A DNA stretch of 64,000 nucleotides from an uncultured Planctomycetaceae bacterium (lineage in GTDB: Bacteria > Planctomycetota > Planctomycetia > Planctomycetales > Planctomycetaceae): assembly GCA_963815195.1 (NCBI GenBank), contig CAWFGE010000015.1:731227-795226 (forward strand). The letters run 5' to 3'. Below the pieces are notes generated by a model. It made no database searches, was not told the origin of the DNA, and worked only from the letters and a program-made list of their open reading frames with translations. Of this stretch, positions 19,687-24,991 are shown in pieces (positions within the stretch are counted from its first letter, which is position 1; every line of letters starts with the position of its first letter). A program made the translations under genes and the position numbers.

Positions 19687-20496
19687 ATGCGAATGAAGTT
19701 TTGGAAATCCTGGGCGATCCAATGCTTTATCAAGTGCTTGAAAGAAATGTCGCTCGGGTCCGCGGTGCGGTTTGTCCGGCTTCAACAGGGGGGCCTCTTC
19801 GGCGATGTCTTGGAAATGAAATTGAATGGAAAGATCCAGGGCGTCGTCGCCATCCGGACGTTCGGTTCCGACGCCGACACGATGCGAGAAATCTGCCTGC
19901 TGGGCGTCTATGACCAAATCTGCAGCCGCGTTCCTTCGGCCAAGTCGATTGTCGACCTGGGCGCGAACATCGGCCTCGCGACCCGGTTGTTTGCCGCGCG
20001 GTATCCCGCGGCGTCCATTGTCGCCGTCGAACCCGATCCGCAAAACTTTGCAATGCTAAATCGCAACACGCATCGCCAGATCGAACAAGGAAGGTGCCGG
20101 CTGATTCACGCGGCGATCTGGGATAAAGACGGCGATGTGAGTCTCCAACCGTCGGAAGGCGAAGGACAATTCGACTCTGTCCGAACGACCGAAGCCCAGG
20201 AATCGGGATCCCGGGTCCGCGCCATCACGATGGAAACGCTGCTCAATGAAACCGGGTTGGAGCAAATCGACATTCTGAAAATCGACATCGAGGGGGCGGA
20301 GGTCGAGCTTCTGCGGTCCGCCCCCAAATGGCTGAATCGCGTGCAATCGATCGCCGCGGAGTTTCACGGCGCGAGCCGGAGGGAATCCGGGTTTGATGAC
20401 CTGATGCAAAAGAACGGTTTCCATATTGTCGAGGGTTCGGTTCACACCGTCATGGCTTTAAGAAATCGGCTTCTCCCAGATCAAGCCGCCGCCTGA
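19687..20496 (+). CDS. FkbM-family methyltransferase
   Basis: IVDLGANIG, VEPDPQN, LKIDIEGAE. Confidence 0.9.
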   Translation: MRMKFWKSWAIQCFIKCLKEMSLGSAVRFVRLQQGGLFGDVLEMKLNGKIQGVVAIRTFGSDADTMREICLLGVYDQICSRVPSAKSIVDLGANIGLATRLFAARYPAASIVAVEPDPQNFAMLNRNTHRQIEQGRCRLIHAAIWDKDGDVSLQPSEGEGQFDSVRTTEAQESGSRVRAITMETLLNETGLEQIDILKIDIEGAEVELLRSAPKWLNRVQSIAAEFHGASRRESGFDDLMQKNGFHIVEGSVHTVMALRNRLLPDQAAA

Positions 20497-20519: not shown

Positions 20520-21413
20520 ATGCTCGTCAGCGCCGTGATTCCAACGTTTAACCATGCCCGTTATGTGTGCGAAGCCGTGGAGAGTGCGCTCGCTCAACGC
20601 GATGTCGCTATGGAAGTGATCGTCGTGGATGACGGGAGCACCGACGACACGGCCTTGCGCCTGTCCGCCTATCAGAATCGGATCCAGTCCATCCGCCAGG
20701 AAAACCAAGGCCTGTCCGCCGCTCGGAATGCGGGAATCCAAGCCTCCCGCGGCGATTGGATCGCCTTTCTGGATGCCGACGACCTTTGGCACCCCCTTAA
20801 AACCTTCGTGCAAATTCATGCGGCCGTGCGCGCTAGGAGCGGCGTGTGCGTCATCGGGTCGCTTTCCGCGCGGGAACTCCCAGCCGTGCTCGATCCGCAA
20901 CCGGCCGTCGAGCCCTTGGACGTGAGAACCTTGCTCTTAAAGACGCGGTTCGGACCTTCGGGAGCGATTGTCAAGCGCGAATGTCTGGAAAAAATCGGCG
21001 GCTTCGACGTGCAACTGGGCCCTGCATCGGATCGAGATCTGTGGCTGCGATTGGCGGCCGAGTTTCCCACCGTCCGCGTGCTCAGCCCCTGCTGGTGGTA
21101 CCGCGAGCATGCGGGGCAAATGAGTAAAAATGCCTCGAAAATGGAAGCCGACTATGACAAAGTCTTGGAGAAATTCTTTCGCAATCATCCGGAATACAGC
21201 GAATTTCGCGACATGGCCTGGAGCTACTCGTTGATGGATTCCGCCATTTGCCACCGCGAATGTGGAAAAACACAAAAGGCGCTCGTCTTAGCCGCCCGGT
21301 CGATGTGGCGTTATCCCAAATCCCTTTCGCGCGGCCCTTTGTTTCGGTTGAAATTCCTCGCTCGAACTCTTGTTCCTAAGAACGTGTTGGGAAACCTGAG
21401 CGGTAGGCGCTAG
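20520..21413 (+). CDS. Glycosyltransferase family 2
   Basis: VSAVIPTFN, VVDDGSTD, GLSAARNAG, AFLDADD. Confidence 0.92.
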   Translation: MLVSAVIPTFNHARYVCEAVESALAQRDVAMEVIVVDDGSTDDTALRLSAYQNRIQSIRQENQGLSAARNAGIQASRGDWIAFLDADDLWHPLKTFVQIHAAVRARSGVCVIGSLSARELPAVLDPQPAVEPLDVRTLLLKTRFGPSGAIVKRECLEKIGGFDVQLGPASDRDLWLRLAAEFPTVRVLSPCWWYREHAGQMSKNASKMEADYDKVLEKFFRNHPEYSEFRDMAWSYSLMDSAICHRECGKTQKALVLAARSMWRYPKSLSRGPLFRLKFLARTLVPKNVLGNLSGRR

Positions 21414-21980
21414 CCTCCGGCTTTGATGAAATCCTATTCACTAAATCAACGCCGGCGGCTAGCCACCCAGAGGGTACCCGGCCGCTCACGATTTTGATCG
21501 AATTCAAAACCTTGGCGCTGCAACGGTTGCTTGCCAAGCGACGGCAGAGCTGTGGGCTTTGGAAGATCGACGCCCGATCAGAACCTCCCATCGCTTCGCA
21601 ACCCAGGTTGACAAGCAACCTGGGCCACCCTGCACCAAAAGAATTTAGGGCCGAAGGCCCGGCCCTATGTCAGCCCGGGGCAAGCGCAGCGCCGCCCTGG
21701 GTTACGAATGATGAATGAAACACAAGCCCCAACGGGGCGGCCCTATGTGGCAACCTTCTCCGGTTGAGGACCGCCCGGTTGAGGACCGCCCCGTTGGGGC
21801 TTTTGCACTTTGTTAGTTCCCGTTCCCCAGGGCTGCGCCCTTATAGGATTTGCTGAGGGATGGATCGGCCGCGGGAGAGGGCGGGGGGACGCAAGTCTCT
21901 CCCCACGGACTCTTCCGCGCCGGAGCCGATCCAGCGCCGTTTTTTTCCTGTTTTTCCAGCCCCAACTTTGAGAGGATCAA

Positions 21981-22158
21981 AATCAGGCACGCGTCGCCCC
22001 GCTACGAATCGTGCGCCCCATCGCTTCAACGATTGAGCCCAGACTTTCGAGCGGGACGATGCTCTTGGGAACCAACGAATCACTCCAGATGATGACGCCA
22101 AAACGTCTCGGACTATAAGGTTTTCGCCCGCTCCCAAGATCGCGTGCCCTTTTTGATT
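21981..22158 (+). ncRNA. Predicted IS110 bridge RNA (the transcript probably starts near 21855 and includes a 5' hairpin)
   Basis: Closing stem GGCACGCG/CGCGTGCC; target loop with TGCGCCC (22012-18) and AGCCCAG (22036-42); donor loop with CAGATG (22086-91) and CTATAAG (22113-19). Confidence 0.82.
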
Positions 22159-22188
22159 GTGTTTCACTTTAACAGGAGACGATCCCCC

Positions 22189-23473
22189 ATGCACTCGAAT
22201 TTGCTCGACCCCAATGCCTGTGTGCTGATCGGCCTCGATTGGGCCGACCGCGAACATGCCGTCTGCCGGCTGCTTCCCGACGGCGGAACCGAACACCGGC
22301 AACTCGAACACACGCCCGAAGCGATTGCCGACTGGCTCGCCGGCCTGCGGAAGCAATTCCCCGGTCGCCCGATTCGGATCGCGTTGGAGCAAAGCCGCGG
22401 CGCGCTGATGAACGCGCTCCGCCGTTTCGCCGACCTGGAACTCGAACTGTATCCCATCAATCCCAAGCAGCTGGCCCGCTATCGGGACGCGATTCATCCT
22501 TCGGGAGCGAAATCCGATCCAGACGATGCGCAGCTCTTGGCCCGCTTTCTGCAAAACCATCAGGAGCAACTCCTCCCGTTCGTGGCGGACGATCCCGAAA
22601 CCCGCCGCCTGGCCGAGTTGTCCGAACTTCGCCGCAAGCTGGTCGATGACCGCAAAACCCTTGTGCAGAAGCTCGAAGGCACGCTCAAGCTGTATTTTCC
22701 GCAACTGCTCGAATGGTGTGCCGGCAAGAGTCGCCAACCCCTGTTGCTCGCCGTGCTTCGCCGCTGGCCGAGCTTGGGCGATCTTAAGCGGGCTCATCCC
22801 AAAACGCTGCGCACGTTCCTCGCCGAGCATGGCCTGCGGAACCCCGACCAGCAAACCGAGTGGATCGACAACGTCCGCCCCGCCACCCCGTTGACCGAGG
22901 ATGCCAGTTTGATCGAACCCCGCGCGATGTACGCCCAAAGTCTCGGCCGGCAAATCGAGGAACTGAACGAGGCCATTGCCAAATTCGAGAAGCAACTGGA
23001 CGAGGCGACCACCGCGCATCCCGACCACGAACTGTTCCGCTCGCTGCCCGGTGCCGGCGACGTCCTCACGCCGCGACTCATCGTGGCGATGGGCTCCGAC
23101 CGGGACCGCTACCAAGACGCCGGGGACGTGCAATCCAAAAGCGGCATCGCCCCGATCACCAAGCAAAGCGGGAAGACCCGGCTCGTGTTGTCGCGAATCG
23201 CCTGCCCCAAATTTCTCCGGCAGACATTCCACGAGTTCGCCGACCAGGCCCGCCGCTGGAGCGATTGGTCCCGAGCGTTCTATCAAATGAAACGCGCAGG
23301 CCGGCATGAGCCACCACGCCGCGGTCCGCGCCTTGGCCTTCAAATGGATTCGCATCATCTTTCGGATGTGGCAAACCGGCACCCCTTACTCGGAAATGAA
23401 GTACCAGGAACAACTCACAATCAGAAACAGCCCCGTCTGGAATTTATTGGAAACAACAACAGAAACCACCTGA
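22189..23473 (+). CDS. IS110 DEDD recombinase/transposase (indel near 23298)
   Basis: GLDWA, IALEQ, KSDPDDA, SLPGAG, GIAPITKQSGK; shifted frame continues HAAVRALAFKWIRIIFRMWQ to TGA 23473; AGGAG RBS. Confidence 0.92.
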
Positions 23474-23712
23474 AACCCACTTGAAAAAACCTCAGATGTC
23501 TGGGCTGACATAGCGCCGGACCTTCGGTCCTTTTTCCGTAATTTGGAACGACTGAAATTCCAAGACCGCTTACTTCGTGCGCGGCTCAGTCGCTTTTTGT
23601 CATGTCCGGGTTTTCAAGAAACCGGGCGGGGTGGCTGGGGTCGGTTTGTCGAAAGGTGCGTGGCTTCAAGAATACGCTGGATCGACAAACTGCCCCCAGT
23701 CGTGCCGCTTCT

Positions 23713-24991
23713 TCAACCGTTCCCCATCCGTTCCCGCACCAACGCCAGGGCTTCCTCGTGTGTGTGGATTTCGCCGTTGAGTTGGGCGTCGCGGACGGTT
23801 TCCAGAAGGTCTTTGAACTCGGGGCCCGGCTCGAGGCCCAGGTCGATCAAGTCCTTGCCGGTGATGAGCGGCGGGGGGTTCAGTTCCTCGGGCGGGGTGT
23901 TTCGAAGGTATTCTTCGCAGAAGATCACCGGCCCCAGATCGAGGTCTTTGGTGATGCGCTCGACCCGCATGAGCTTCAAGAGGTCCACGGTCAACCGCTG
24001 GGCCAGGAGCCTCTTGAGTCGGCAGAGCGGAAGCTGCGGCGCATCGTCCAACGCCCGCTGATGATCCAACAGCCAGGCGATATCGTCGGTTTCCTGATTG
24101 GACAGCCGCCAACGCTGGCCCAGTTCGGCGGCGGTTTCCGCGAACTTGACTTGATTCGGCAGCGCATGCCAGAGCACGGCGGCCGCGAGTTCAAAACTCG
24201 GGGCCTGAAGGAGATGCAACATGTGCAGCGTCCGCTGCCATTCCTCCGCGGGAGCTTCGTCCGCCGATTTGGGCAAGATGGGCCTTAGTTCCGGGAGGAT
24301 GATCTCCAAGAGGCCCGCCTGCTGGGTCAACTGCATGCCCCGGGCGCGGTGCTCGTTGGTGAGCATCTTTCGCAGGCTCTTGCGTGATCCGCTCGGCACT
24401 CACGACGGTGAGTTGATCCGCCATCTCGCGGACGGCCGACGCGGTGATGGGGTCCAGTTCGAAATCGAGATTGGCGGCGAAGCGGACGGCCCGGAGCATT
24501 CGCAGCTTGTCTTCGCGGACGCGGTCGTGCGGATCGCCGATGGCGCGGACGATGCCCGCCCCCAGGTCGCGCTCGCCGCCGACGTAATCGAGCACCTGCT
24601 GAGCCAGGGGATCGAAGAACATGCCGTTGATGGTGAAGTCCCGCCGTTTGGCGTCTTCCTCGGGGGTGGCGAAGGTGACGGACTCGGGCCGCCGGCCGTC
24701 GAGGTACGGACCTTCGGTGCGGAAGGTGGCGACTTCCACATCCGCCACGCCCCGCGGACCGCGGACGACGATTACCCCGAAGCTCGCTCCGACGGCGAGA
24801 GTCCGGCGGTGGCCGAAGATTTGACGGACTTCCTCGGGCCGGGCGTCGGTGGCGACGTCATAATCCTTGGGGACCCGGCCCAAGAGATAGTCCCGCACGC
24901 ACCCGCCCGCCCACAGCGCCTGATGTCCCGCCTGCTTCAGGCGGCTCACCACTTCGCCGGCAAACTCGCGATTGCGGTCGGTTGGGGGCAT
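23713..24991 (-). CDS. cca: CCA tRNA nucleotidyltransferase/poly(A) polymerase family (indel near 24375)
   Basis: AGGCVRD, KDYDVAT, EVATFR, RRDFTING, EDKLRMLRAVRF, ERI. Confidence 0.88.

Follow-up and report, generated by a model that had tools for sequence, protein, structure and literature searches.

Bridge RNAs were predicted for thousands of orthologues by Durrant et al. 2024 (PMC11208160), and IS621 from Escherichia coli (PMC11208160, PMC11208158, PDB 8wt6-8wt9) is the system with which we compare the present locus throughout. Its recombinase couples a DEDD RuvC-like domain to a Tnp domain with a catalytic serine and acts at a CT core; its RNA stems from a long left end, with the target loop first and the donor loop second, and has 5' guides with the sense of the top strand and 3' guides complementary to it (PMC11208160). 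In addition, donor T7 is paired by a handshake A that follows the right target guide and target C7 by a handshake G that follows the right donor guide (PMC11208158), and insertion occurs into a REP-like palindromic repeat (PMC11208160). ISPpu10 from Pseudomonas putida has all its copies in one conserved intergenic repeat, and a GC-rich extension 5' of its target forms a stem-loop (10.64898/2026.03.19.712850). Elements of the IS1111 group (seekRNA / right-end bridge RNA) belong to the same recombinase family and follow the same RNA-guided logic, but their RNA comes from a long right end and their subterminal inverted repeats are longer (PMC11208160).

Each of these IS621 traits recurs in the locus described here, which lies in a stretch of 64,000 nucleotides from an uncultured Planctomycetaceae bacterium (the whole stretch analysed is called the window below). 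Based on fold, guide words and covariation, we consider it very probable that an IS110-group insertion sequence (21840-23501) has its bridge RNA gene at 21981-22158, with IS621-type guidance of both target and donor. Departures from IS621 include a recombinase of 427 aa rather than ~326 aa and of distant kinship (phmmer E 2e-7, mainly over the C-terminal domain), a covarying closing helix that encloses both stem-loops, a right target guide of 7 nt as opposed to 4 nt in native IS621 (10.64898/2026.08.31.748434), a left donor guide that is not paired with the core and a longer left end with a ~70-nt 5' hairpin. Compared with ISPpu10, the use of one conserved intergenic repeat is shared and sequence and host differ; the hairpin at the target is, in our case, read from sequence alone. 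Unlike the IS1111 group, the RNA sits in the left end, the right end spans 26 nt and the inverted repeat 3 bp. A cluster that includes ISCfr13, ISCps4, ISCps5 and ISEsa2 (Supplementary Table 1 row 373, PMC11208160) has, by eye only, the motifs ALEQSRGAL, PSGAKSDP.DA, SLPGAG, SGIAPV and CPKF.RQTFHE in common with our recombinase.

Supplementary Table 1 of PMC11208160 contains 31 rows from Planctomycetes, the 13-nt target word (see below) was not found in the searchable part of the supplements to that paper, and we found no published full text that joins 'bridge RNA' with 'Planctomycet'. As to mechanism, it is well supported that the element provides a further example of the one described in 2024 and no new one. 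Bridge recombinases are under development for the programmable insertion, excision and inversion of DNA, with natural orthologues of differing properties as raw material, and here the complete set (intact recombinase from two other copies, RNA, donor and target) is available from the genome. Three features, namely the 7-nt right target guide, the pairing of both target-loop handshake nucleotides with the donor and the location of the target in a hairpin, resemble changes that, according to the IS621 papers, raise activity or specificity.

The element, its recombinase and its copies

Every sequence-level criterion that could be tested supports an assignment of 21840-23501 (Table 1) as an IS110-group bridge recombinase element, because of its domains and catalytic residues, CT core, end lengths, two-loop RNA, guide-target covariation and handshake guides. 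The CT core borders the element at 21840-41 and 23500-01 and is present once in the empty site, there are no long terminal inverted repeats, and a long left end (347 nt), which harbours the RNA, is combined with a short right end (26 nt). By eye, a 3-bp subterminal inverted repeat (CCT...AGG) flanks the donor word, for which relatives have ACT...AGT or CT...AG. The recombinase matches PF01548 (DEDD_Tnp_IS110; E 2.8e-25) and PF02371 (Transposase_20; E 7.1e-14). D17, E67, D110 and D113 align to the DEDD residues of IS621 and are invariant in 21 of 21 sequences, S327 aligns to IS621 S241 (PDB chain numbering offset +2) and is a serine in 20 of the 21, and all five catalytic residues precede a frameshift that breaks the window copy.

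Table 1. Features of the element and its target junctions (positions refer to the window)
Feature	Position	Strand	Remarks
Whole IS110-group element	21840..23501	+	both CT core copies included; body 21842-23499; 1660 bp with one CT counted
Left target half CTGCGCC and core CT	21833..21841	+	identical in 5/5 copies; 21834-40 equal to left target guide
Left non-coding end, 347 nt	21842..22188	+	begins with right donor half TATAG (21842-46)
-10-like TAGGAT	21844..21849	+	17 nt after right-end TTGAAA once ends are joined; putative promoter of circular form
Long imperfect hairpin, ~70 nt, then U-rich tract (21939-45; seven Ts)	21861..21933	+	fold of 21842-22188
Putative bridge RNA core (closing helix around target- and donor-binding stem-loops)	21981..22158	+	covariance model, structure covariation
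Closing helix, 5' strand	21986..21990	+	pairs with 22144-22148; compensatory changes in 5/5 pairs
Target-binding stem-loop	21991..22062	+	outer helix 21991-22008 / 22046-22062, inner helix 22020-23 / 22030-33; 96% and 82% of cells paired
Left target guide TGCGCCC	22012..22018	+	sense of target top strand (equal to 21834-40); would pair with bottom strand
Right target guide AGCCCAG (22036-42) and handshake AC (22043-44)	22036..22044	+	guide is reverse complement of 23500-06; AC complementary to donor positions 6-7 (GT, 23498-99)
Donor-binding stem-loop	22063..22139	+	outer helix 22063-71 / 22130-39; compensatory changes in 9/9 pairs
Left donor guide CAGATG (22086-91)	22083..22091	+	equal to 23493-98; with one extra C, CTC[C]AGATG versus right-end word CTCAGATG
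Right donor guide CTATAAG (22113-19) and handshake GT (22120-21)	22113..22121	+	guide is reverse complement of 21840-46; G22120 complementary to target position 7 (C21839)
IS110 recombinase gene	22189..23473	+	frame of this copy lost at codon 370 of 427 through an extra A (23298)
Right non-coding end, 26 nt	23474..23499	+	-35-like TTGAAA (23481-86), left donor half CAGATGT (23493-99)
Core CT and right target half GGGCT	23500..23506	+	identical in 5/5 copies; reverse complement of right target guide

The host genome (8.87 Mb, 25 contigs, 59.7% G+C) has five copies with the same ends: the window copy, C13:491043, C18:85781, C19:222847 and, with an internal deletion, one in C13 near 1055041. Their bodies are 99-100% identical, the bridge RNA region is identical in all five, and beyond these copies no PF01548 genes were found in the genome. 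When metagenome contigs were compared with 21600-23700, a contig joint was seen that leaves out exactly 1660 bases. We considered such element-skipping joints as candidates for an empty window locus; owing to mismatches in the flanks they probably represent other copies of the repeat. Upstream of the element lie genes for an FkbM-type methyltransferase (19687-20496) and a family-2 glycosyltransferase (20520-21413); the element occupies an intergenic repeat downstream of both and interrupts no gene. An antisense open frame of 513 aa (21841-23382, minus strand) and a frame of 80 aa over the RNA were taken as by-products of high G+C and set aside.

Fold, guides and handshake of the RNA

Searching 5.8 billion sequences with the intact recombinase retrieved >7,700 homologues at E ≤ 1e-20, the nearest 69% identical, and we retained 80 related loci with 41-59% identity, mostly from Planctomycetota, Acidobacteriota and Verrucomicrobiota assemblies. 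A single-sequence nhmmer search (query 21981-22158) places an RNA homologue directly upstream of the gene in 35 of the 80 loci, and a covariance model, made from a 22-sequence alignment with a specified 45-pair structure, finds the RNA on the coding strand upstream of the gene in 70; most of the ten loci without a match are truncated upstream or have partial genes. Within the 64-kb window the model has a single match (21979-22160, 151 bits). An Rfam 15 scan of 21000-24500 with E up to 10 returned matches at chance level only and none over the RNA, where no family came to E 0.1.

In the alignment, 91.7% of the cells of the specified structure are paired as opposed to 33-40% once partners are slid by 1-3 columns, 31 of the 45 pairs are changed on both sides, and none of 500 shuffles attains any of these measures; the RNAalifold consensus from the same 22 sequences has compensatory changes in 26 of 37 pairs. 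Helices placed by covariation are 21986-90/22144-48 (closing), 21991-22008/22046-62 (loop 1) and 22063-71/22130-39 (loop 2), so that the two stem-loops with internal loops typical of IS621-type bridge RNAs are supported by covariation. The minimum-energy fold of 21981-22158 (-62 kcal/mol, z -3.4) likewise consists of a closing helix and two stem-loops with an internal loop in each. Thus, the two-loop layout put forward in the initial annotation is found in the fold and in the covariance model alike, and the loop stems it named, CCCGCT/AGCGGG (21998-22003 / 22050-55) and TCTTGGGA/TCCCAAGA (22063-70 / 22132-39), are present. Its closing stem of eight pairs (21986-93/22141-48) stands in part: five base pairs are upheld by covariation and the other three belong to the stem of loop 1, where 21991-96 pairs with 22057-62 within a total of 17 bp.

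The same annotation had assigned TGCGCCC to the left target, AGCCCAG to the reverse complement of the right target, CAGATG (6 nt) to the left donor and CTATAAG to the reverse complement of the right donor, and all four correspondences are exact at the positions given in Table 1, the four words being spread over two loops in the published order for IS621-type RNAs. In 200,000 shuffles of the 178 nt, all four never co-occurred and at least three did so in 6. The guides of the target loop comprise 7 nt on each side, with the second core base mismatched in the 5' guide (C opposite core T). In the donor loop, the right guide extends over 7 nt with the core among them, and the left one offers 6 contiguous nt (9 with a one-base bulge), leaving donor position 7 and the core unpaired; the left donor position 7 of IS621 is reported to tolerate mismatch (PMC11208160).

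Across the alignment, conservation extends to the scaffold, the second loop (ACT-CAGATG ... CT-ATAAGG) and the ends of the element (CTCAGATGT-CT-TATAG); in the first loop both sides vary among relatives. Such a variable loop 1 next to a conserved loop 2 has been reported for IS621 relatives (PMC11208160). In a hand-mapped set, the left guide matches its own left flank by at least 6 nt exactly in 13 of 15 elements versus 9 of 210 cross pairs, the two misses aligning by eye with one internal mismatch, and the right guide matches the reverse complement of its own right flank in 13 of 14 versus 5 of 182 cross pairs. A set mapped automatically, with ends called on the covariance-model alignment (including some errors in end-calling) and one row per distinct guide pair, gave 31/40 for own against 54/1560 for cross pairs on the left and 22/29 against 20/812 on the right. 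By eye, the register of the core within the 5' guide moves by one base among relatives. Guide-target covariation, which had been proposed as a check, is therefore seen, and the claim of an IS110 bridge recombinase ortholog with a target specificity of its own holds as far as sequence can tell: the element does appear to have its own specificity because its target-binding loop is unlike those of all relatives examined.

Nine loci from one Verrucomicrobiae assembly (L064-L079) have identical guide words. The left flanks of seven end in AATTTTCG; the other two share a different flank (AGCAAGTCCG), which may stem from a mis-called end.

According to PMC11208158, once strands have been exchanged, positions 6-7 of the other DNA are paired by the two nucleotides that follow each 3' guide, and handshake pairing with cognate DNA blocks the reaction. 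In the window, the AC of 22043-44 complements the GT of the donor (23498-99) but not the CC of the target, so the target loop can pair both of its handshake nucleotides with the donor; the donor loop can pair one of its two with the target. Of 16 elements, all can pair the first handshake nucleotide of the target loop with donor position 7 (both partners are changed in three), and 15 can pair that of the donor loop with target position 7 (both partners are changed in one); in none is the first handshake nucleotide of either loop complementary to its cognate DNA. Independently, and on a small scale, the clade alignment confirms that guides covary with their targets and that the handshake positions covary as well.

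Taken with the precedent of IS621, these data suggest the following mechanism. The RNA, presumably made from a promoter assembled across the joined ends, would fold as two stem-loops held by a short closing helix. Guides in loop 1 would specify the insertion site, a word in the 8-bp hairpin of a REP-like repeat, with the left target guide having the sense of the left target and pairing with the bottom strand, and guides in loop 2 would do the same for the junction of the element's own ends. As in IS621, the DEDD/serine recombinase may act as an RNA-bound tetramer that brings circular element and target together for strand exchange at the CT core, the chemistry presumably being that of IS621. 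Following top-strand exchange, the two nucleotides behind each 3' guide would pair with the non-cognate DNA in a handshake.

The REP-like target repeat and an insertion outside it

All five genomic copies occupy one 16-nt word, GGCTGCGCC-CT-GGGCT, which indicates site-specific insertion, and the flanks that they have in common (...cccagggctgcgcc-CT-gggctgacat...) are part of a REP-like repeat whose right arm has 90 matches in the genome by fuzzy search, including the 5 at element copies. In uninterrupted repeat copies the two flanks are joined via a single CT. One of these (C7:81744) matches 40/45 and 44/45 flank bases, another (C12:900511) contains the exact 16-mer, and the 13-mer TGCGCCCTGGGCT is present twice uninterrupted and five times occupied. 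The target reconstructed in the initial annotation is therefore real. By eye, the target word of uninterrupted copies is located within an 8-bp hairpin, CCCAGGGC-TGC-GCCCTGGG. Similarity between the flanks of the five copies extends over only ~200-310 nt on the left and ~30-140 nt on the right (78-96% identity). Judged by this pattern, the five copies are separate insertions into copies of a composite repeat, because their flanks are alike only over the repeat length and the element bodies are 99-100% identical.

Central hairpins of the composite repeat (window 21630-21839 and 23502-23555) fall into two classes, of which the element uses the short (cccagggc-tgc-gccctggg) and not the long (cccagggcggcgctgcgcttgccctggg). 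At its end the repeat has a terminator-like hairpin (GGACCTTCGGTCC) and then Ts, and an inverted repeat unit lies 150-200 nt upstream.

A region that immediately precedes the ribosome-binding site and start codon (ATG at 22189) of the recombinase gene might be thought to act only as a structured 5' leader that controls translation or stabilises the mRNA, with incidental matches and with specificity set by the protein. We regard this as extremely unlikely, since four words would not co-occur by chance (compare the shuffles above), the words of loop 1 vary with each element's own flanks across relatives, and the handshake positions covary with the other DNA partner; a role as a leader would in any case not exclude one as a guide. 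That the recombinase picks its target mainly by recognising the hairpin in the REP-like repeat, with little contribution from the RNA, draws on the position of the target word within the 8 bp and on the specificity that a target stem-loop is reported to add for ISPpu10 (10.64898/2026.03.19.712850). However, the published effect of the stem-loop comes on top of RNA pairing and does not replace it (10.64898/2026.03.19.712850), and relatives with different loop-1 words occupy different sequences, which leaves this option very improbable as well. We thus favour guidance by the RNA, with the loop-1 words as the probable main determinants of the site.

As for the expectation that other copies should not be inserted at unrelated sites, all five genomic copies agree with it by residing at the cognate word, but the single full copy of a sister genome does not. 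Of 40 related genomes, one (G001, same genus) has a full copy, 95% identical (locus L100 = G001:C25:390886-392539, minus strand), whose RNA differs from that of the window at two positions, both outside the guides, so that the guide words are identical. Its site (ggcgcaagc-CT-tatggtc) matches neither target guide even though G001 has three empty cognate 13-mers. The right side, CTTATGG, shows one difference from the donor word CTTATAG, at a position where the guide U could pair with G; simple arithmetic puts the probability that 4 of 5 bases agree at a random CT site at ~1.6%. The boundaries of the copy are drawn from element-end identity alone: a search of G000, G002 and G003 for the empty orthologous site gave only multi-copy matches far from the junction for the left side and none for the right.

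One-arm "half-match" off-target insertion has been described for IS621, with right-donor-only events as the commonest class, and this mode has so far been reported only for IS621, in cell-free reactions and re-analysed editing data (10.64898/2026.08.31.748434). It is quite possible, if somewhat short of probable, that the G001 copy is a natural insertion of the right-donor-only half-match type, in which the 3' guide of the donor loop was matched and the target-binding loop not at all. If true, the half-match mode would also shape where such elements land in wild genomes, even with cognate sites free. We read the site as one off-target event that fits the published mode and does not overturn RNA guidance. 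Elsewhere in G001 (L105 1501-1700, G001:C30), a related copy has decayed to a 3' remnant, 86% identical over 140 nt, whose right end CTCAGATGT is followed by CC-GGGCT, the cognate right target with a mutated core.

A putative junction promoter and the state of the window copy

In 12 of 12 relatives with both ends mapped, we noted by eye a TTGAC or TTGAT in the right end, 17-18 nt before a TATAGT or TACAGT of the left end. Across the junction of the window element this becomes TTGAAA-N17-TAGGAT, a match to the consensus only. With the two boxes at opposite ends, a promoter-like site would exist only once the ends are joined, and a promoter scan of the linear, integrated state (21700-23700) found no sigma-70-like site. 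None of the sequencing runs listed as containing the element is recorded as RNA. The -35-like box of the window is 2 nt nearer to the right end than in the 12 relatives, and its left end has TATAGGAT in place of TATAGT; use of TAGGAT as the -10-like hexamer keeps the spacing at 17 nt, an apparent compensating shift.

Between this putative promoter and the RNA sits the hairpin at 21861-21933 with its U-tract. In the closest relatives, too, the 5' part of the left end forms a long hairpin, albeit of different sequence, and the segment 21861-21945 could be a 5' stem-loop of the family that has grown long or, alternatively, an attenuator.

The RNA gene of the window copy is intact, and its recombinase gene has an extra A that is absent from the four other copies and replaces the last 57 residues of the 427-aa protein. 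If the frameshift is real, the copy would depend on two intact copies elsewhere in the genome. C13:491043 and C18:85781 are free of indels with respect to the intact frame, the former translated through residue 424 of 427 and the latter one substitution away; given these two, a frame-repaired recombinase is unnecessary. The remaining copies are damaged, C19:222847-224500 by a 2-bp deletion at window 22412-13 and a 1-bp deletion at 21883, C13:1055041-1056395 by the loss of 301 bp (window 22790-23090) and of a single base at 22533.

Whether the extra A is an assembly error, in which case the window copy would be intact and autonomous, bears on this dependence. Its absence from four of five copies is in line with such an error, and so are metagenome contigs that run over the element without it, although these contigs collapse all copies. 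An assembly indel is a live alternative because the nearby gene for a CCA-adding enzyme, probably essential, is split by a 1-nt shift (near 24375) as well. On the other hand, the A at 23298 lies outside any homopolymer run, and decay of copies is plausible because C19 and the second C13 copy carry independent deletions. On balance, we hold an assembly error to be rather less likely than genuine decay of the window copy. The gene for the enzyme (CCA-adding enzyme / poly(A) polymerase family; 23713-24991, minus strand) appears as two overlapping frames, with the PolyA_pol head in 24191-24991 and the remainder in 23713-24399, and is either a pseudogene or the product of an assembly indel.
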